This document shows, piece after piece, positions 4,477-39,099 of a DNA stretch of 40,110 nt. The position numbers were made by a program, and so were the translations under genes. This DNA is from a virus. Its lineage: Duplodnaviria > Caudoviricetes. Location of the stretch: positions 1 through 40,110 of IMG/VR virus record IMGVR_UViG_3300016636_000068. One strand, 5' to 3'. Position 1 is the stretch's first letter, and each line of letters starts with the position of its first letter. The notes below the pieces were generated by a model, which was not told the origin of the DNA, made no database searches, and saw nothing but the letters and a program-made list of their open reading frames with translations.

Positions 4477-4826
4477 GTAGTCACAGCTCCTGTCACGATG
4501 AACTTACCTTCAAGAATTCTTGTTATGGTAGTTCCTGAATCTAAAACTAAGTCATAGGCATATCGACCAGCATCGATATCGCCTGTAATGGTAGATGACA
4601 GAGTTACTGTCACACGTCCATTGATAGCATCAAAGACCATACGACCATTGGCAGTAGAAGCCACAACTGTTGTCGTAGATGCGCCAACGAAAGGGCGCAC
4701 TGTCATTGTCCCTGTGTATCCTGTCAGGTTCCAAGGAGTGGATGTACCACTGACGTTATTCTGTACTTGGAACTGGAAAGTGAATGTAGTTGCCTGGTCG
4801 CAAACCAGATTGTATTTAGCACTCAA
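4473..4826 (-). CDS. Structural adaptor protein (BppU-N-like beta sandwich)
   Basis: DQATTF...[10 protein letters not shown]...YAYDLVL...RILEGKF pattern commonly upstream of collagen/fibre genes. Confidence 0.55.
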
Positions 4827-21282: not shown

Positions 21283-21312
21283 TTGCGTGTTAGATAAGCC
21301 TTACATTACACT
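21283..21312 (+). promoter_or_regulatory. Putative sigmaA promoter for early micro-ORF operon
   Basis: TTGCGT-18 nt-TACACT upstream of first + strand gene. Confidence 0.55.
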
Positions 21313-21362
21313 CGCCCCAAAGGGGCGTATTCCGCGCTCACTCTGAAAGGATAAAAACGATA

Positions 21363-21521
21363 ATGAACAAAACCTACACTCTAACACTCAACACACGAGA
21401 AATTGAATTGATAATTCACTCCCTAGACTGCGACACACAAGGTACTTGGGGCGACGGCAGGGAGGAAAATATCCAACAAGTAATCAAGAAAATCAGAAAC
21501 CAGCAGAAGGCGGGAAAATAA
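21363..21521 (+). CDS. 52-aa early protein
   Basis: GAAAGGATAA RBS; MNKTYTLTLNTREIELIIHSL...; TAATG coupling. Confidence 0.75.
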   Translation: MNKTYTLTLNTREIELIIHSLDCDTQGTWGDGREENIQQVIKKIRNQQKAGK

Positions 21522-21790
21522 TGTCACACACACTTACCGACTGCGAATACGCCAGCTCTGAATATCACGACACCTGCCCCGACTGCGGTGAGCTAACTGC
21601 TTGTGTCTGCCTCGCTTCCATAGTGTCAGAGTGGGCGATTAGCCCTACGGGGCAGGCAGGCTCTTTCGCCTATCGTTACCAATACAAGGAGAAGGAGGGC
21701 GACCTTGTAGAGCGTTTTGGATACGCGGAAACCTACCGCGAGGCAATGGACAGTATCGCTCACTCCGTGAATTGTGAGGGGAAGCGATGA
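21521..21790 (+). CDS. Early protein with CPDC motif
   Basis: MSHTLTDCEY...TCPDCGELTACVC. Confidence 0.7.
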   Translation: MSHTLTDCEYASSEYHDTCPDCGELTACVCLASIVSEWAISPTGQAGSFAYRYQYKEKEGDLVERFGYAETYREAMDSIAHSVNCEGKR

Positions 21791-21873
21791 GTGAGTGCGA
21801 AAGAGTGGCTTACAACCGCGAGAGCTGGTACTGCCTCACGCATCATCAACTAGAGGAGAGAGAGGGCGAGTAA
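21787..21873 (+). CDS. 28-aa early peptide
   Basis: ATGA overlap; MSECERVAYNRESWYCLTHHQLEEREGE. Confidence 0.55.
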   Translation: MSECERVAYNRESWYCLTHHQLEEREGE

Positions 21874-22038
21874 GTGAATACGATCGAGTTGAAGCGTCAA
21901 TTTTGGGCAGGTATAGCTAAAGAAAATGGGTGGTATAGCGAGCCTTTCTATGTTCAGGTGTGGCTCAACGGAGAGGGGGAGATTACAGATAGCGTTTCGT
22001 TCGCAGGGCTAGACCGCGACATAATAGAGCGCATCTAG
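21874..22038 (+). CDS. 54-aa early protein
   Basis: MNTIELKRQFWAGIAKENGWYSEPFYVQVW... Confidence 0.7.
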   Translation: MNTIELKRQFWAGIAKENGWYSEPFYVQVWLNGEGEITDSVSFAGLDRDIIERI

Positions 22039-22092
22039 TGCTTTACTATGGGAGAGAGTTAGTCTATCCTCTCTCCTGTGGTAGCTCACTAG
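22035..22092 (+). other. Long intergenic RNA hairpin
   Basis: CTAGTG/CACTAG outer stem plus 15-bp inner stem with 3 G-U pairs. Confidence 0.65.
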
Positions 22093-22124
22093 GAGCTAGT
22101 TACACCTAATGAAAGGATAAAGAT

Positions 22125-22607
22125 ATGTCGGCATTTATGGCAAATGACGACCACCTAGACCTATTGGCTAGTGTGGTGGAGTGGGGGAGAGAGGGCATCT
22201 ATGTTTATTTCAGCGATGAAATGTTGCCCCCTCGTTCTGATTTAGAAGCAACGCGAGGAGAGGGGAACTATTACAAGACACGCACTCACGCCTCACTTAT
22301 CAAAGAGGAGTTACGCCTAGAGAACCAAGCGAGCCTGTGGGCGCGATACCCGAAAGATGCTAACGAAATGTGGCACGAAAGCAAGCCTAACTATCGTCAC
22401 ATACTCAGCGACCAAGCTACCAAAGCTCAAGTGTTGGGTGCGCTGGCGTGTTACGAATACCAAGCCTGCGAGAGTGAGAATTGGAAGCACTCCTACGCTC
22501 ACGCACTTATTCAAGCGATGAGAAAGAGCATCTGCCGAAGCATATCGGGCGATAATTGGGAATATACCCGACCTGCGACAATGAGCGAGAGAGTGAGGAT
22601 TATCTAA
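22125..22607 (+). CDS. 160-aa early protein
   Basis: GAAAGGATAA RBS; ENQASLWARYP and ACYEYQACE motifs of a recurring phage family of unknown function. Confidence 0.8.
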   Translation: MSAFMANDDHLDLLASVVEWGREGIYVYFSDEMLPPRSDLEATRGEGNYYKTRTHASLIKEELRLENQASLWARYPKDANEMWHESKPNYRHILSDQATKAQVLGALACYEYQACESENWKHSYAHALIQAMRKSICRSISGDNWEYTRPATMSERVRII

Positions 22608-22732
22608 TGTTCAATGTATCTACGAGCTGGATCAACGGACTAGGACAGGTCATCACCTACGCGCTTATTATTGGTGGCGTGTTGTGGGTGCTAAGTAAAA
22701 TCGAAATCAAGGAGAGAGAGGGCGACAAGTGA
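22607..22732 (+). CDS. 41-aa membrane peptide
   Basis: VITYALIIGGVLWVL hydrophobic stretch; coupled. Confidence 0.65.
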   Translation: MFNVSTSWINGLGQVITYALIIGGVLWVLSKIEIKEREGDK

Positions 22733-22893
22733 AAAAGTATGAGTTGGAGAAGGTGGAAACCTACGCGGTGAGAGCGCGTAGTGTTGATGAAGCTATGGAA
22801 ATCCTGAACGGGCTAGACAATTCGTCAGCGTATCGCGTTGATGTGAGGGTGATTTACGCCAGCGCACCAACAGAAAGAGAAGGCGTGTTATGA
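22729..22893 (+). CDS. 54-aa early protein
   Basis: MKKYELEKVETYAVRARSVDEAMEIL; GTGA overlap. Confidence 0.65.
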   Translation: MKKYELEKVETYAVRARSVDEAMEILNGLDNSSAYRVDVRVIYASAPTEREGVL

Positions 22894-23012
22894 ATTGTGA
22901 GTGCGAGCTAGAGAACGATTACCTAACCTTATGCGATGAGCATAAACAAGAGCTGGAGAACCTAAAGAATAATCCGCCCTTATGGGCTATCAGAGCGAGG
23001 AGAAGCAAGTGA
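22890..23012 (+). CDS. 40-aa Cys/His peptide
   Basis: MNCECELENDYLTLCDEH. Confidence 0.6.
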   Translation: MNCECELENDYLTLCDEHKQELENLKNNPPLWAIRARRSK

Positions 23013-23158
23013 AGTGTGAATTACAGGACATTGAAACAATTATGAAGGAGGCAGGCGTGATCTTGACAGGTAACGCCTACGAGAAGGCACAAGACTACCT
23101 AGAGGCTAACTGCCCTTGTGCCACCTACGAATATCTAAATCAAAAGAGAGGCAAGTAA
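23009..23158 (+). CDS. 49-aa early protein
   Basis: GAGGAG RBS, coupled both ends. Confidence 0.6.
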   Translation: MKCELQDIETIMKEAGVILTGNAYEKAQDYLEANCPCATYEYLNQKRGK

Positions 23159-23388
23159 TGGAAATCAAGTTACTAGACCATACCAATACAGGGTGGGCGA
23201 GAAAGATACTGATTACCTATGAAGGAGAGAAATACCCGATTACCCTTACTTGGGAGAATTGGGAAGGCTACGAAATAGTAAGTGGCTATGACGATCTGCC
23301 CGAAAGTTTCAAGGAGAAATACACCGAAGGGCTAGACCTATACCGATTACTAGACGATACAACAAGTGAGGAGCTGGCTAATGTCTAG
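23158..23388 (+). CDS. 76-aa acidic early protein
   Basis: MEIKLLDHTNTGWARK...; TAATG coupling. Confidence 0.7.
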   Translation: MEIKLLDHTNTGWARKILITYEGEKYPITLTWENWEGYEIVSGYDDLPESFKEKYTEGLDLYRLLDDTTSEELANV

Positions 23389-23524
23389 CGAGTGGCTAAA
23401 TCATCAAGGTCACAAGATCGTTGTGGCTCGTTATACCGACACAGACAACAATGTTGTCAATGTATCTATTGAGTGTGAGGAGTGCTGGCAAGTGCTGGCA
23501 GATGAGGAGGTAGCTAATGTCTAA
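23381..23524 (+). CDS. 47-aa early protein (ECEEC)
   Basis: 8-nt overlap junction ATGTCTAG; HQGHKIVVARY...SIECEEC. Confidence 0.7.
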   Translation: MSSEWLNHQGHKIVVARYTDTDNNVVNVSIECEECWQVLADEEVANV

Positions 23525-23744
23525 AGAGCATTACTTTATTGTGAAGTGGAGTAGGGCAACAGGGTGGGAACTTGACCCTGAGAGCGAGGAAGCTCGCTTC
23601 CCTGACGGAACTGTATTCAACGGGAAAGAGTGGGAACTGCCTTACTTGGGGGAAGGTCTATACAACGAAGGCAACGACCTAATAACCCAAGACCTAGAAA
23701 TAATCCTAAGCCAAGCTAACGAGAGGGAGGGAGATCGTGCCTAA
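23517..23744 (+). CDS. 75-aa acidic early protein
   Basis: ATGTCTAA junction, GAGGAGG RBS. Confidence 0.75.
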   Translation: MSKEHYFIVKWSRATGWELDPESEEARFPDGTVFNGKEWELPYLGEGLYNEGNDLITQDLEIILSQANEREGDRA

Positions 23745-23904
23745 GTATGTTTTTCAAATTGAACAACAAATTGAAGTCAATGCCAAGTCATACGAACAGG
23801 CGTTAGAGGAACTACCTATCTATCCCACTACTCACGGAAAAGTGTGGGAGATACTAGACGAAACGACACAACTGCTTTATCAAAAGGAGGAAACTAATGT
23901 GTGA
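23737..23904 (+). CDS. 55-aa early protein
   Basis: GTGCCTAA junction; MPKYVFQIEQQIEVNAKSYEQA. Confidence 0.7.
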   Translation: MPKYVFQIEQQIEVNAKSYEQALEELPIYPTTHGKVWEILDETTQLLYQKEETNV

Positions 23905-24025
23905 TCTCTGCTCTGAGTATGGGGTTCAGACAGTATCGGTAAAAATCAGAAGCAAAAGAACAGAGGTTCAGATGTGCTTCAGATGTTTAGCGCAAGCACA
24001 ACAAGAGGAGGGTGACAATGCCTAA
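23897..24025 (+). CDS. 42-aa CxxC..CxxC zinc-finger peptide
   Basis: MCDLC...MCFRC. Confidence 0.7.
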   Translation: MCDLCSEYGVQTVSVKIRSKRTEVQMCFRCLAQAQQEEGDNA

Positions 24026-24146
24026 GTGCGAAGTCTGTTGGGCAGACAGTAAAGAAACTTATATCTACCGCTACAAGGGAGCTACCTATTGCGAGCAAGA
24101 CTTAGAGAGAGCGCAGAAGGAGGGGTGGCACAATGACAACGCCTAA
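24018..24146 (+). CDS. 42-aa zinc-finger-like peptide
   Basis: MPKCEVC...YCEQD. Confidence 0.7.
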   Translation: MPKCEVCWADSKETYIYRYKGATYCEQDLERAQKEGWHNDNA

Positions 24147-24297
24147 ATGTAAGTGGTGCGAGGGTGAAACCCGTATAGAACCGCTTGACTACTACCTTGA
24201 GGAGTTAGGGTGCGAGGTCACCTGTGAAGGGTGTGACACTTTGATCTGCTTGGAGTGTGGGCAAGATGTAGCCAATGAGGAGGTAGCCAATGTCTAA
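24133..24297 (+). CDS. 54-aa Cys-rich peptide
   Basis: CKWC...CEGC...CLEC. Confidence 0.7.
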   Translation: MTTPKCKWCEGETRIEPLDYYLEELGCEVTCEGCDTLICLECGQDVANEEVANV

Positions 24298-24427
24298 ATG
24301 GACAGTATGGGTGGGTGGTGGCGAGATCAACTCCTACTACCTAAGCAAAGAGGAAGCGTTAGAACTAGCCCAAGTCTGGAAAGACAATGGCTATGACGAG
24401 GTAGTTATGGAGGAAGTCAATGTCTAA
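24290..24427 (+). CDS. 45-aa early protein
   Basis: MSKWTVWVGGGEINSYYLSKEEALELAQVWKDNGYDEV. Confidence 0.75.
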   Translation: MSKWTVWVGGGEINSYYLSKEEALELAQVWKDNGYDEVVMEEVNV

Positions 24428-24566
24428 GTTTTACTGTGTTACCTGTAATTCTAATCTAACACGCATATCCGAAGGGGAGTGGATAGATAACGAGGGCTTT
24501 ATTTTCTGCCCTGTGACAGATGAAATCCACTATCGCACACTCAGGAAAGAGGTAGTCAATGCCTAA
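24420..24566 (+). CDS. 48-aa zinc-finger-like peptide
   Basis: MSKFYCVTC...FCPVTDEIH. Confidence 0.7.
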   Translation: MSKFYCVTCNSNLTRISEGEWIDNEGFIFCPVTDEIHYRTLRKEVVNA

Positions 24567-24708
24567 GTGTGGAGTGTGCGGTTGGACATTCTCAGATCGA
24601 ACGCTGATGAAACACGCTGAAACCCCGTGTGGGGAGGAGAGCGAGAAGGCGGGCAGATACCTGCCCGAAATAGATGATTTACTACGACAAGAGGAGGAAA
24701 GTAAGTGA
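24559..24708 (+). CDS. 49-aa C2HC zinc-finger-like peptide
   Basis: MPKCGVCGWTFSDRTLMKHAETPC. Confidence 0.7.
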   Translation: MPKCGVCGWTFSDRTLMKHAETPCGEESEKAGRYLPEIDDLLRQEEESK

Positions 24709-24872
24709 ATAAGGAATACTATCAAGCAAAGGCAGACCTATGCCGTGACCTAGCTATCAAGCAAATGGTAGAGGGAGATAGCAAGAGGGCAGGGGAGAAC
24801 CTGATCCGTATGGTCAATGCCCTGAACGAACTAAACCTAATCAACTACAAGGAGGAAAGGGATAATGGCTAA
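24705..24872 (+). CDS. 55-aa early protein
   Basis: GAGGAGG RBS; MNKEYYQAKADLCRDLAIKQM. Confidence 0.7.
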   Translation: MNKEYYQAKADLCRDLAIKQMVEGDSKRAGENLIRMVNALNELNLINYKEERDNG

Positions 24873-24981
24873 ATGTTTTGAGTGTGGTTGGTTTGATAAT
24901 GATAAGAGTTTTTTCTACGAAAGAGAGGGCGAGCAATACTGCTCGCTTCACATAAACAAGGAGGAGAAGGCAAGTGAGTGA
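24865..24981 (+). CDS. 38-aa zinc-finger-like peptide
   Basis: MAKCFEC...YCSLH. Confidence 0.7.
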   Translation: MAKCFECGWFDNDKSFFYEREGEQYCSLHINKEEKASE

Positions 24982-25114
24982 AATCCGTTGTAATAACTGT
25001 GGCTATGAGTGCGAGGAAGTAAATGAGGACACTCACTATTGTCAGACCTGTCAAGGGGCATACGACAAAGGGGCGCGTATGGGATACAAGATCGCTAAGG
25101 AGGAAAGCAAATGA
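24974..25114 (+). CDS. 46-aa zinc-finger peptide
   Basis: RCNNC...YCQTC. Confidence 0.7.
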   Translation: MSEIRCNNCGYECEEVNEDTHYCQTCQGAYDKGARMGYKIAKEESK

Positions 25115-25275
25115 AGGACAAGATGACAAAGCTGGAACGCCTAAATTTTGAGGCGTGGTGGTGTGCTGAGGAATTACTCAATAACACCTCTGAATACTCA
25201 GACGAATACCTACGGGGATACGCTGAGGCTATCAAGTGGGTCAAGTCTTTAGATCAACAGGAGGTATATGTATGA
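25111..25275 (+). CDS. 54-aa early protein
   Basis: AAGGAGG RBS, ATGA overlaps. Confidence 0.7.
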   Translation: MKDKMTKLERLNFEAWWCAEELLNNTSEYSDEYLRGYAEAIKWVKSLDQQEVYV

Positions 25276-25451
25276 ACAGGGAAATGTATCTGCTCATAGC
25301 AGACACGATTACCGCAGTAAAGAACGAGTTTGAGTCACCAGCTATTCAGATAGTGGTGGAGGCGTTAGCAGATGCCTTTGAAGGATACGACCCTCACTTT
25401 GATAGGGTTATATTCCTCAATGACTGCGAGTTAGCGGAGGCGAGCGTATGA
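25272..25451 (+). CDS. 59-aa early protein
   Basis: AGGAGG RBS; LADAFEGYDPHFDRVIFLNDC. Confidence 0.75.
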   Translation: MNREMYLLIADTITAVKNEFESPAIQIVVEALADAFEGYDPHFDRVIFLNDCELAEASV

Positions 25452-25672
25452 AACTGACCAATTTCTATGAGGTAATGGATCGCAAGGGAGATATTGCGTG
25501 GGGAGGGGCGAGCGCAAGCGAGGCGGTGGAGTGGTTTAGACGAGGACTAGATAACTCTATCTTTGTATCGGTCTGGAACGAGGAAGATATTGAGGAACCT
25601 GTCCTTGTCACCGACAAGATAGAGGTGACTACCCTTGTGCTGGCTACGATTACGAGTGAGAGGTCACGATGA
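25448..25672 (+). CDS. 74-aa hypothetical protein
   Basis: GGAGG RBS, coupled. Confidence 0.75.
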   Translation: MKLTNFYEVMDRKGDIAWGGASASEAVEWFRRGLDNSIFVSVWNEEDIEEPVLVTDKIEVTTLVLATITSERSR

Positions 25673-25752
25673 TATTCTTAGGCGTAATAGTGGCTACCAT
25701 AATTGCCTACCTGCTCATAGTGTGGGAGGATAAGCTCAATGAACCTAGATAA
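25669..25752 (+). CDS. 27-aa membrane peptide
   Basis: MIFLGVIVATIIAYLLIVWEDKLNEPR. Confidence 0.6.
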   Translation: MIFLGVIVATIIAYLLIVWEDKLNEPR

Positions 25753-26038
25753 ACGAAAGGCTAGTGCTGAGAAGCGAGCCGTATGGCTACGCAATTATCA
25801 GCGAGCACGAGGGCGAGCGCTCACACGCCTTGCTCAGCAATACCCCGACCAATTCAAGGAAATCTTGGAAGAAGAGAGGCTATCTGATGAGGCTAATGGC
25901 AAAGCGTGGAGTGATATTAGTGGCAGGACTATCAGCGTTGTGGGTAGTTCTCGCGCACCCCGTAGGAAACGTAAAGTTTCCTTCAGATATACCCACCGAA
26001 GTCGTAAGGGCAAAAGCAAGTTGGGAAGAAAAAAATGA
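25739..26038 (+). CDS. Basic hypothetical protein
   Basis: GGAGG RBS; RNYQRARGRALTRLAQQYPDQF. Confidence 0.65.
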   Translation: MNLDKRKASAEKRAVWLRNYQRARGRALTRLAQQYPDQFKEILEEERLSDEANGKAWSDISGRTISVVGSSRAPRRKRKVSFRYTHRSRKGKSKLGRKK

Positions 26039-26309
26039 GAACAGAGAATTGGCAAAGCAATATGCGTGGGTTGCGTTTGGTTGGCGAGGAAGAGAGTGGC
26101 TCTGCCTTCACGACCTTTGGACCCGTGAGAGCAGGTTTGACCACTACGCACAGAACCCAACAAGTTCAGCTTTCGGAATTGCTCAACTGCTTGGAGAGAG
26201 AAGTAGAAAGCCTTCACTCCAAATACTGCGAGGCTTACGTTACATTGACGAGCGTTATGGATCACCTTGTAAAGCTCTCAGCTATCATAATAAACGAAAC
26301 CATTATTGA
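25896..26309 (+). CDS. Membrane-anchored lytic transglycosylase-like protein
   Basis: N-terminal TM; CLHDLWTRES..NPTSSAFGIAQLL..QILRGLRYIDERYGSPC (SLT-like actinobacterial family). Confidence 0.8.
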   Translation: MAKRGVILVAGLSALWVVLAHPVGNVKFPSDIPTEVVRAKASWEEKNENRELAKQYAWVAFGWRGREWLCLHDLWTRESRFDHYAQNPTSSAFGIAQLLGERSRKPSLQILRGLRYIDERYGSPCKALSYHNKRNHY

Positions 26310-26334
26310 CAAAGAGAAAGATACTAAGTAGAGT
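26306..26334 (+). promoter_or_regulatory. Strong sigmaA-type promoter with no downstream ORF
   Basis: TTGACA-17 nt-TAGAGT. Confidence 0.75.
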
Positions 26335-26337
26335 ATT

Positions 26338-26419
26338 ACTACTAAGCGTTCCTTATCCTTTCGCTCAGTAGTAAGTAACCCCGCAGATCAAGAGTGCTAA
26401 CTGCGGGGTTATTTTATTT
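26338..26419 (+). ncRNA. Putative ~80-nt sRNA with anti-Shine-Dalgarno loop
   Basis: Promoter, hairpin with loop TTCCTTATCCTTT, then intrinsic terminator. Confidence 0.65.
26376..26419. terminator. Intrinsic terminator at convergence of + and - blocks
   Basis: TAACCCCGCAG...CTGCGGGGTTA then TTTTATTT. Confidence 0.8.
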
Positions 26420-26590
26420 GTCTTTATCTGTTGAATAGAAGCCTGATCCCCTGAAGGAAAGAGGAGGAGGAGACCAGACCCTATTCATCATTTCGCCACA
26501 CGAGCAGAAGGGGTTGCTCGCTTCAGCGTGGATAGACCTATCAACTTCGGAGGTTAGCTGACAGGTCGGACACTTGTATTCATAAATCAT
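26414..26590 (-). CDS. FmdB-family zinc ribbon protein (not in ORF track)
   Basis: MIYEYKCPTC...CSCGEMMNRVW...FRGSGFYSTD. Confidence 0.85.
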   Translation of the reverse strand: MIYEYKCPTCQLTSEVDRSIHAEASNPFCSCGEMMNRVWSPPPLSFRGSGFYSTDKDK

Positions 26591-27045
26591 CTAACTACTA
26601 CCACCGCAGAGGGAAAGGGTGCGGAGTTCTTCTGATTACCAAACTTCAACCTACCCTTGATAAATCTAACCTCGTGCTGAATACAATAAGAGTGCCACCA
26701 ATTCGTATCAGTGCGAGCAGGAACGAGGCAGACAACAACCCCACCTGCTTGTGCTTCAAGGTTAGCCTTTTTCATCCATTCACCGATAGTTCTTCCGTAT
26801 GGAGGGTTGAGCCAGATAGGTTTATTGCCAGCATCAATAGTCCAAAGACGTTGGAAAGCATCTCTACGTATCAACTGCGGATGATCTGGTCCATACCAAT
26901 TATCAGGCACGAGAGTAGAGGAGGAGAGCGCAGCCGCATCTAATCCAAAGTGGAACTCATCATTCAACTTATCAAAGAAATCTCTAGGCGTAGTCCACGT
27001 ATTATCATTAGAAGTACGCATACCTGTTGTAAATCCTTGTGTCAC
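26587..27045 (-). CDS. Phage DNA N6-adenine methyltransferase (phage Dam family)
   Basis: WTTP, LDAAA, WLNPPYG, LVPARTDTNWW, GRLKF, APFPS motifs. Confidence 0.9.
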   Translation of the reverse strand: MTQGFTTGMRTSNDNTWTTPRDFFDKLNDEFHFGLDAAALSSSTLVPDNWYGPDHPQLIRRDAFQRLWTIDAGNKPIWLNPPYGRTIGEWMKKANLEAQAGGVVVCLVPARTDTNWWHSYCIQHEVRFIKGRLKFGNQKNSAPFPSAVVVVR

Positions 27046-31954: not shown

Positions 31955-32133
31955 CCGTTGCCCTGCCATCTCGTAAGAGTTATGTTGCATACTAGCAAAT
32001 TGATTTGCAAAACTCTAGCCACTGCACGCAGTGGTTGATAATCAAATACTTTGTAATAGTCCAGTCCTAATGACCAGTTGTCGAAGTGGTGTGCATTGAT
32101 ATGCACCGTCCACACTTTCCAATCTTTTCTCAC
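31945..32133 (-). CDS. 62-aa hypothetical protein
   Basis: GGGAG RBS inside HNH 3' end; GTGA overlap. Confidence 0.6.
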   Translation of the reverse strand: MRKDWKVWTVHINAHHFDNWSLGLDYYKVFDYQPLRAVARVLQINLLVCNITLTRWQGNGWI

Positions 32134-32585
32134 GTTAGCTCCCGTCTTTGAGTAACTAATTGAATCGGACCTTTACGCAGATTGCAAATAGCGTGCGCTG
32201 GTCTTACGTTCTCCAGCGTGTCGCCACCTCCAGAAGAAATTGGAATGATGTGATCTATATGTAATCCCATATGCCAATCAGTCCCTTCTCCCTGCTTTCT
32301 TGGAGCGTCCAAATCAATTTGTTCAGAGCAAATATGACAGACTAAGCCATACAATTCAAGTACCTGAGGCTCGGAATATGGGCGTGTCTCAACTTTCCTG
32401 ATTCTTGCACGCCTACGCCTAGCACCTTCTCTGGTTTTGTGAGGATTTTCAGCGTTATATCTTTGATGATACTCACGCATTTTAGCCTTGAACTCAGGAG
32501 TCTCACGCCTTGCTTTTCTTTTTGCAACAATAGACTCCCTGTTTTTCAGGTAGTAAGCTGATTGATATTCTTTATCGTAACTCAC
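32130..32585 (-). mobile_element. Free-standing HNH endonuclease
   Basis: CHIC..HIDHIIPISSGG..ENVRPAHAICN. Confidence 0.88.
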
Positions 32586-37095: not shown

Positions 37096-37320
37096 TTACT
37101 TAGAAAGGGCTGCGATTTCTTCTGCGGTCAATCCGAGTGCCGCTAGTTTTGCTTCGGCTGCAGCCTTTGCTGCTGCCTTTGCTGCTGCTTCTGCTTCTTC
37201 TACTGCTTTGCGTTCAGCGGCTGCTTGAGCATCTGCTTCTTGCTGAGCGATTTCTTCAGCGGTAAGTTCTACCTCTGTAGTAACGCCAGTGCTGCAATCA
37301 ACGACGAGTTTGGTTGGCAT
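37096..37320 (-). CDS. Small tail-associated protein
   Basis: [25 protein letters not shown], typical after fibre genes. Confidence 0.65.
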
Positions 37321-37996
37321 TGTTTTCCTTTCTTGAGATTAGGTGCGGTGCGTAGGTATTTATTATTTCTAAAGCATATTCAATTTTGTCATCAATGCGT
37401 TGACCTGATGGTTGAGATGTGTTCCATAGTTCAAGATTTTCAGGACGGTTGTCTTTCCTATTGCCGTTCTTGTGGTGAACATTCTCGTCTCCACGAAGCG
37501 GTCTACCTATCATTTTTGACATCACATAACGATGCTCTAGAACATAACCTCTAGCGTCAGCATTCTCGTGCTTAGGATCCCAAATAAGGGAGTAGGTCTG
37601 GCGCTTACCTTTATCTGCTACTTTGCGGCGAAATGGGTCGCCATAAAGTTTTACTCTGCGATAGTGCATTTGGCACATACCTTTAGCCTGTAAAGGTTTT
37701 GTGCATTGACGATTATCATTGCTAATAATCGTACATTTGCGCGAATCTAGTTTCTTTTTTCTAGGCTCAGGAACATTAGTTGAACCACTTCTTCTTATTC
37801 TTTGGCAGTGCATAGCACACATACCCTTAGACTTTTTTGGCTTATCACAACCTTCTATAGTGCAGTGAGTTACAAGCCTAGCCATCCACCTAGGACTTAC
37901 TCCTAATGGATCGCCGAACTTACGCCAAGCCCTATAATGATTAGAACACAGACCGCGAGCATTTACTTTATTGGAACAGTTTTCTACAGAGCACAT
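37298..37996 (-). mobile_element. HNH endonuclease with three Cys/His N-terminal repeats
   Basis: [25 protein letters not shown]. Confidence 0.88.
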
Positions 37997-38010
37997 AGTC
38001 TCAGTATATA

Positions 38011-38520
38011 TCAACTTGATCGGATTCCGTAAAGGGTTGCGGTTGAGTATTGTGAGAATGTAGAACCACTTGCATCAGGGGTAAGTGTAATACTACTAAT
38101 TGCAGCGTTATTAGACCATAGAGCAGCGTTCAAGTATGAAAACACAGTTGTTGTATTAGATTCCGCAACAGCATCGGAACTTGACGATTTATTATTACTT
38201 CCTGCGTAATTAGGAATATAAATTTCGCTATTGCCAAAAGTGCTAGTTGTTGCGGTGCTGCCTGTTCCCAATATCGGGTGTCTTGTTAGTGTTTGACTTC
38301 CCGCAGCAGAACCATTGCCGTATAAACCTCTCAAAGAAATGCTGCTCGTAGAACCATTGAAGGTTACATTTATTTCGGAAGTCACAGATGCTTGGTCAGT
38401 TCTCGCAGATACTTTCAAGAGTAAGTCTGTGTAAGTAGCAGGGATTGAAGAAAACGATATTGTCGCCGCCCCACCGCTACCCACAGTCACAGTTGCAATT
38501 GCTTCATAAGTAGTTGCCAT
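38011..38520 (-). CDS. Tail-associated paralog C
   Basis: [29 protein letters not shown]. Confidence 0.75.
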
Positions 38521-38529
38521 AGTATCTCC

Positions 38530-39099
38530 TTATGCCTTCTCGGTGGACAAAAGTTCAGGAGCATATTGCTCAAGGATCTCTATTGCGTATTTCACTTTAT
38601 CCTCTACTCTCTGTCCAGAGGGTTGAGCCTTGGACCATAACTCTAGATTTTCAATTCGGTTATCAGCGCGGTTTCCATTGATATGATGTACCGTTTCTGT
38701 TTTTAGCAATTCCCTACCAAGAAAATCAGACATTATTTTCCTATGCTCTAATACTCTTCCATTGAGAGTAGAATTTGGATGTTCTGGCGCATATATTTCT
38801 ATGTAACCATTTTGATTTATAGTTGGCTTGTCTTCTCTTGGGCGACCTACAACGATACTTGCATCACCGTATAAAGCATTCCTTCGATAATGCATTTGAC
38901 ATAGCCCTTGAGCACGATGTGGCTTTGTGCAATTTTCAAAAGTGCAATGCTCAAATTTGCTAAAGTTTCCAGATCCTGGACCGCCTAGTGGATCGCCATA
39001 CTTTCTAAATCTTGTATAGTGAGTAGCGCAATAGCCTTTGCCACGACGGTCTTTATTGCAGTCATCAACTGCACAAGGGTATGAATTTACATATGGCAT
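38530..39099 (-). mobile_element. HNH endonuclease with two Cys/His N-terminal repeats
   Basis: EHRKIM..VHHINGNRADNRIENLELW. Confidence 0.88.

Follow-up and report, generated by a model that had tools for sequence, protein, structure and literature searches.

A predicted antisense RNA at the 3′ end of a phage early operon whose loop mirrors early ribosome-binding sites, and hairpins of similar layout in cultured actinophages

Introduction

Chromosomal small RNAs (sRNAs) with a C-rich loop, such as the staphylococcal RNAIII and RsaE, have many unrelated targets. Phages encode antisense RNAs of their own, among them c4 of P1 and P7 and CI of P4. Further examples are sar of P22, OOP and aQ of lambda, and STnc6030 of BTP1 (PMC12197685). 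Most of the phage sRNAs described there take part in temperate decisions or act on host genes. In Vibrio cholerae, OppZ and CarZ are chromosomal, autoregulatory sRNAs derived from 3′ UTRs and processed by RNase E, with Hfq among the keywords of the paper (PMC7398697).

In cluster K mycobacteriophages, non-structural genes carry the start-associated sequence (SAS), a repeated extended motif at the position of the ribosome-binding site (RBS). Papers of 2011, 2024, and 2025 call its function unknown (PMC3203893, PMC11373665, PMC12699233).

The locus considered here belongs to a freshwater phage, the complete 40,110-bp virus record of which, with direct terminal repeats, is referred to as the window. 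A first-pass annotation had proposed that a stand-alone sRNA encoded at 26306–26419 blocks, through its loop, the RBSs of the genes that lead the early operon.

The phage and its early operon

The 32 proteins scanned in the window include terminase, portal, major head protein, WhiB, a sigma-like factor, primase, helicase, and a transglycosylase-like protein; no integrase was found among them. Among cultured phages, the nearest relatives of the sigma-like protein are the Planktophila phages E7 and F5 (PMC10202952) and 29 Streptomyces cluster BF records, with 25–31% identity, a kinship that suggests an actinobacterial host.

The majority of the genes are on the minus strand. From 21363 to 26309, the plus strand carries a series of small overlapping ORFs, the last of which is the transglycosylase-like gene with a likely start near 25887–25896; by its position and the type of its genes, this chain would be the early operon. 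In its small-ORF part (21363–25752), the genes at 21363 and 22125 are the only ones whose start neither overlaps nor abuts an upstream stop, which agrees with the earlier claim that these two head the translationally coupled chains.

At the 8-nt gene overlaps of the chain, a junction motif, GAGGAGGTAGCTAATG, is repeated between 23361 and 24578 (families D1, D4, and D6), and these repeats are possible recombination or coupling modules. Elsewhere in the window, three ORFs resemble HNH endonucleases by eye (32130–32585, 37298–38014, and 38530–39099), two of them among the tail genes. The gene at 26587–27045, flanked by the FmdB-like and sigma-like genes, encodes a DNA methyltransferase; it is absent in some strains, since contigs from two RNA-library runs join across it.

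Structure of the putative RNA

The element begins with a predicted sigma-A-type promoter on the plus strand (26306–26334), composed of a −35 TTGACA (26306–26311), a 17-nt spacer, and a −10 TAGAGT (26329–26334). This site matches the consensus at 10 of 12 positions; between 19 and 30 kb, 13 promoter-like sites were found against 13.0 expected, so a single match means little alone. The −35 overlaps the TGA stop (26307–26309) of the transglycosylase-like gene, and a 98-codon ORF in an alternative frame ends inside the −10. Hairpin 1 (26336–26374) has arms at 26336–26348 and 26362–26374, with 12 pairs and one A·C mismatch. Its anti-RBS loop, TTCCTTATCCTTT(C), occupies 26349–26362, of which 13 positions (26349–26361) are predicted to be fully unpaired. 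The RNA would start near 26340, leaving an eight-pair stem in hairpin 1. Hairpin 2 (26375–26419) resembles an intrinsic terminator, with a stem-loop (26375–26412), a 14-nt loop (26387–26400) that contains GAGTGCTAA, and a U-tract extending to 26419; it was missed by an automated terminator scan, which considers loops of at most 8 nt. The two-hairpin fold has a z-score of −5.97, and none of 200 shuffles was equally stable. Promoter, open loop, and terminator were all recovered in the places assigned to them by the first-pass annotation.

At the other side, the U-tract extends over the stop of the convergent gene 26414–26590. With the −35 lying over the stop of the last early gene, the element thus doubles as the 3′ terminus of the early operon. 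Its description as stand-alone holds for the promoter and terminator signals, which are its own as judged from the letters alone, but it is at the same time located in the 3′ UTR of the operon that it would repress, and two relatives (L018 and L019) lack a nearby −10. In metatranscriptome contigs, the flanks and one 98-nt piece (26358–26455) are covered, and no discrete RNA was seen in them; being assembled, these contigs carry no ends, strand, or level.

Conservation in related phages

Of 94 sources, 80 contain a match of at least 52 bits to a model of the element (R1), which was built from 20 copies; the set includes the 20 training rows and 13 sources fetched by terminator pattern. Nine further sources have a one-hairpin form (20–31 bits) with the anti-RBS loop inside the terminator; among the remaining five, four contigs stop at the gene and one (L057) is without the element. 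The compact form, in which anti-RBS loop and terminator loop are the same, was seen in L016, L052, L053, L056, L119, L120, L135, and L148. With regard to position, loop and terminator are directly behind the transglycosylase gene in 53 of 79 cases (78 loci, after two truncated ones had been dropped, plus the window), and where other genes come after the transglycosylase, the element sits behind the last of them. Loci reached through the sigma gene carry more distant forms; one distant group (L174:3556–3646, L177, L181, L187, L248, and L264 (−)) has CCTTCCT in loop 1 and TTCATTT in loop 2.

In a 20-row alignment, 15 of 22 pairs changed on both sides, including 7 of 10 in hairpin 1. Paired cells amount to 90.2% against 33–49% in slid controls; relatedness inflates the shuffle control. 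Conservation and stem covariation, both of which the first-pass annotation had named as checks, are thus borne out.

Of 55 non-redundant contexts, 38 have a −10-like hexamer, TAnnnT, that ends 3–8 nt upstream of the stem (shuffles: mean 8.5, maximum 18; control windows: 17, 6, 6, and 4); this count includes some rows with a displaced anchor and one row taken on the wrong strand. Among 44 distinct regions, the −35 is TTGACA-like in 9 and reads TTGCT(C/A) at 17 nt in 19. The promoter is therefore conserved in relatives as far as a −10 at a fitting distance is concerned, and this points to a primary start rather than to release by RNase E.

No window sequence matched an Rfam family at gathering score, C4 included (best E 0.098; 20.6 bits against a cut-off of 103). 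The element was not found described in the literature searched, which covered few subscription papers; a catalogue of phage structured RNAs may list the motif (PMC10690425).

Correspondence between the loop and early ribosome-binding sites

The loop complement, GAAAGGATAA, has three exact matches in the window: two on the plus strand (21345 and 22111), as had been claimed, and one on the minus strand, which is the loop of the element. With one mismatch allowed, four matches were found against 2.81 expected, and the count by itself is not above chance. Predicted target 1 (21345–21354, plus strand) is the RBS of the first early gene (21363–21521), behind a promoter-like site and a small hairpin, and predicted target 2 (22111–22120, plus strand) is that of gene 22125–22607, behind a long irregular hairpin (22035–22092). 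The near match GAAAGGGATAA (24855–24865, plus strand), also indicated at first pass, is present as the RBS of the coupled gene 24865–24981 and is a possible secondary target. A cis-encoded antisense RNA of the sar or OOP type was rejected: the element does not lie opposite its targets, which are found on its own strand, 4.2 and 5.0 kb further upstream.

The promoter-like site before the first early gene reads TTGCGT-18-TACACT and is followed by a small GC hairpin (21283–21332); a comparable −10 and hairpin are also present in L005, L015, L021, and L029. Long irregular hairpins such as that at 22035–22092 also occur upstream of matched RBSs in relatives. The hairpins before lead early genes are reminiscent of RNase III sites, and they could be processing sites.

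Among the 71 starts of the window, the longest perfect pairing with the loop is found at the two lead genes (10-nt runs; next best 8). Early starts pair at −9.1 kcal/mol against −5.8 kcal/mol for minus-strand starts (p 7e-5). With opening energy included, target 2 ranks first of the 71, the RBS of the 24865 gene second, and target 1, which is partly paired in the folding model, sixth. When G·U pairs are allowed, the lead genes (−11.7 and −12.7) are equalled or surpassed by four other early starts (−12.5 to −14.2) and by one late start (−14.3). The selectivity for just two entry points that had been proposed is accordingly seen with perfect pairing (10 against 8 nt) but lost once G·U pairs are admitted.

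The loop classes mirror GAAAGGAT, GAAAGAGA, GAAAGGTA, GAAAGGGT, and GAAGGGTA. A first set of 38 loci, each with at least 2.3 kb upstream, contains 70 RBS sites of the locus's own class, in 31 loci (permutation mean 31, maximum 59 sites). In a larger set of 71 loci, from which none was dropped for want of a match, there are 117 own-loop RBS sites in 46 loci (permutation maxima 85 sites and 37 loci, in permutations that ignore relatedness); the other 25 loci have no own-loop site, and some of these contigs lack the early region. Of the 35 non-majority loops in this set, 17 are accompanied by their own site and 8 by the majority motif. Of the 9 phages whose loop mirrors GAAAGAGA, 7 have two or more GAAAGAGA sites, as does 1 of 54 others.

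When the loop class is mapped on a 63-row tree of the transglycosylase, at least 18 changes are needed, and loop and RBS can be seen to switch together in two GAAAGAGA groups, L022/L026, L052/L056, and L078. Tree-independent pairs number only two to four per class, without significance, and the GAAAGGGT class went either way; in L001, L091, L049, and L031, the majority RBS occurs together with a different loop. The tracking of loop and RBS suggested by these data is strong, reaching 46 of 71 loci where the permutation maximum is 37, but the co-evolution envisaged in the first-pass annotation is not proven, as the tree-corrected pairs are not significant.

In the relatives, matched starts were scored as coupled in 31 of 61 cases against 423 of 507 for other starts, with a noisy coupling score, and the fold upstream of them is stronger (−24.8 against −13.3 kcal/mol). 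What precedes a matched RBS tends to be a strong hairpin or a promoter-like site, not an overlapping stop.

The second loop is a separate matter. Its sequence is kept despite a stem change in L140/L146. In all five related records, the loop-2 complement has an exact match only at the element itself, so no phage target was found; the other match in the window (4816–4824) is, within its mRNA, in the sense of the loop and not of its complement. The CIRCE operator consists of TTAGCACTC-N9-GAGTGCTAA (PMC13435591). It was considered and set aside here: only the right half is present, in loop 2 (26392–26400), and TTAGCACTC was not found 9 nt upstream. Loop 2 may possibly act on a host chaperonin leader. 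In the distant group, a correspondence of TTCATTT with start codons is weak, with one or two matches per locus in five of six loci against a background of 1.4 per 5 kb; the exception is L248, with nine.

Similar hairpins in cultured phages

A blastn search of cultured phages with the element region gave no match, and no R1 homologue was found in E7, F5, Immanuel3, or WRightOn (best E 0.33). Each of these four phages has a hairpin that mirrors its own early RBS repeat; given the result with R1, these hairpins are treated as analogues, homology not being established.

The intergenic hairpin of cluster BF, located in Immanuel3 (NC_048686) at L272:38410–38475 on the minus strand, is conserved in 28 other BF records (29 in all). 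Its loop, CUCUCUCC, faces the RBS repeat AAGGG(G)AGAGA, its stems covary among six aligned phages, and it adjoins the end of the last block of tagged genes. In five BF phages, GGGAGAG accompanies 43 of the 57 genes listed upstream of the hairpin and 1 of the 22 listed downstream. In E7 (L270:31633–31690, plus strand) and F5 (L271:32650–32745, minus strand), a long stem behind an AT-rich stretch is topped by UAC(U/C)CUCCUGUC, which is complementary to the early RBS repeat GACAGGAGAA; since the gene after the hairpin has this same RBS, action in cis is possible.

For K1 mycobacteriophages, Pope et al. noted a single reversed SAS away from any gene start (PMC3203893). In Anaya, this reversed copy forms the loop of a long hairpin within the gp96–97 gap (L278:33845–33910, plus strand), a stretch that 138 records match. 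The anti-SAS loop, with varying stems, is present in Anaya, Adephagia, Amelie, and Niklas; it was not found at the matching gap in Hammy, Keshu, Pixie, and Marshawn, the other four of the eight cluster K phages examined. The stretches examined in Kratio and ZoeJ do not clearly cover this gap, and the reversed SAS of ZoeJ is just where a leftward gene begins. In Adephagia, the hairpin (L282:1358–1422) occupies the 92–93 gap, where late transcription appears to begin (PMC11373665). This position fits a timing switch, as a correlation.

The BF and K1 antisense loops lie on the strand of the flanking genes, and the hairpins, which have no terminator behind them, are within longer transcripts.

Proposed mechanism and alternatives

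On balance, the element is probably an antisense RNA that represses translation of the phage's own early genes through loop 1. Host RNA polymerase would make an RNA of ~80 nt (about 26340–26419) from the element's own promoter, and extra RNA would be supplied from the 3′ end of the early operon. Loop 1 would pair with the RBSs of the lead genes and exclude ribosomes at these entry points, coupled translation downstream would be lost once the lead genes are blocked, and the net role would be that of a delayed off-switch for early genes in lytic growth. This reading, in its core that of the first-pass annotation, is favored by the conservation, the covariation, the −10, and the tracking; the tree-corrected test and the mismatching phages speak against it.

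The same targets could be reached by an RNA that comes mainly from the 3′ end of the early mRNA, by processing or by folding back in cis, which would make feedback proportional to early transcription and leave the promoter a secondary part. The element is invariably found at the end of the early operon, with which it has the terminator in common; the BF and K1 hairpins lie within longer transcripts, and in L018 and L019 (2 of the 44 distinct regions) the stem is fused to the stop codon with no −10 nearby. However, the −10 hexamer keeps its proper spacing even where the genes upstream are unrelated (the 38 of 55 contexts above), and we regard this source as rather unlikely.

It is improbable that the main targets are outside the genome, whether host mRNAs with a GAAAGGA-type RBS (shut-off) or the early mRNAs of superinfecting kin (exclusion). 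Most loops do end in CCTTTC or CTTTC, which resembles the actinobacterial 16S tail, but loop variants follow the phage's own RBS variant away from that tail, which argues against a main role in 16S mimicry. Because kin have the same class of RBS, exclusion would use the same pairing, and phage antisense RNAs that exclude superinfecting phages are known (STnc6030 and sas; PMC12197685); against this, with no integrase among the 32 scanned proteins, there is no evident resident state.

The tracking of loop and RBS would be predicted equally if the minus strand were the functional one. Read-through from the middle operon would then present the RBS motif in a hairpin loop that serves as decoy to a protein that binds RBSs, for which CsrB-like RNAs provide a model. 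The minus strand folds as well as the plus strand (−29.9 against −28.1 kcal/mol), and the G·U versus A·C counts of hairpin 1 (13 against 11) are compatible with either strand. Over both stems, the counts are 42 against 26, and the wobbles of the terminator stem favor the plus strand, for which the −10 and the U-tract are also oriented; since the BF and K1 loops likewise lie on the strand of the flanking genes, we give the decoy little credence. Activation by pairing, in which the RNA would open or stabilize the 5′ ends of lead genes or help to recruit ribosomes, finds some encouragement in target RBSs behind strong hairpins and in the partly paired target 1, but the loop covers the Shine–Dalgarno core and would compete with 16S rRNA, which makes this option very improbable. 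An ordinary bidirectional terminator region whose complementarity is a coincidence carried by descent would suit the location between convergent operons and the non-significant tree-corrected test, but it is scarcely credible in view of the extra covarying hairpin, the conserved −10, the joint switches of loop and RBS in several clades, and the recurrence of this layout in K1 phages, which are unrelated.

Comparison with known systems

More generally, many actinophages might tag a block of their early genes with a private, extended RBS and use one hairpin with a mirror loop as a protein-free off-switch, of which the freshwater phages, cluster BF, E7/F5, and K1 would be instances; in K1, late transcription would make the anti-SAS loop that silences SAS genes. 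We hold this broader scheme tentatively and put its chances somewhat below even. If true, such a tag-and-mirror switch would explain the purpose of the SAS in subcluster K1. Early-gene shut-off in phages that use host RNA polymerase is poorly known, and a tag-and-mirror RNA would be a compact answer to it. The function of the SAS is now testable, as cultured BF, K1, and E7/F5 phages carry the hairpin, and natural loop–RBS pairs are candidate orthogonal translation switches for actinobacteria.

Like OppZ and CarZ, the element is predicted to be an RNA at an operon 3′ end that inhibits translation by pairing with the transcript of that operon. Unlike them, it belongs to a phage and has a predicted promoter of its own, and its loop, going by the nucleotide sequence, matches an RBS repeated at several entry points. 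With the phage antisense RNAs it would share the repression of phage genes by a phage RNA through pairing, which for sar takes place at translation initiation. Those RNAs serve lysis–lysogeny control or exclusion and mostly have one overlapping target, whereas the element has no Rfam match and its targets, 4–5 kb away, share a 10-nt RBS tag.

The SAS resembles the present system in being a repeated motif at the RBS position, with one reversed copy in a hairpin loop in K1 phages. It differs in sequence and in occurring in unrelated temperate siphoviruses, with 11–19 copies against 2–5 here. A pyrimidine-rich open loop directed at the Shine–Dalgarno region is also a feature of RNAIII and RsaE; the loop of the element, in contrast, follows a phage-specific RBS variant. 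The predicted mode of action would be akin to that of OppZ/CarZ and of the phage antisense RNAs, yet the element would belong to neither group.
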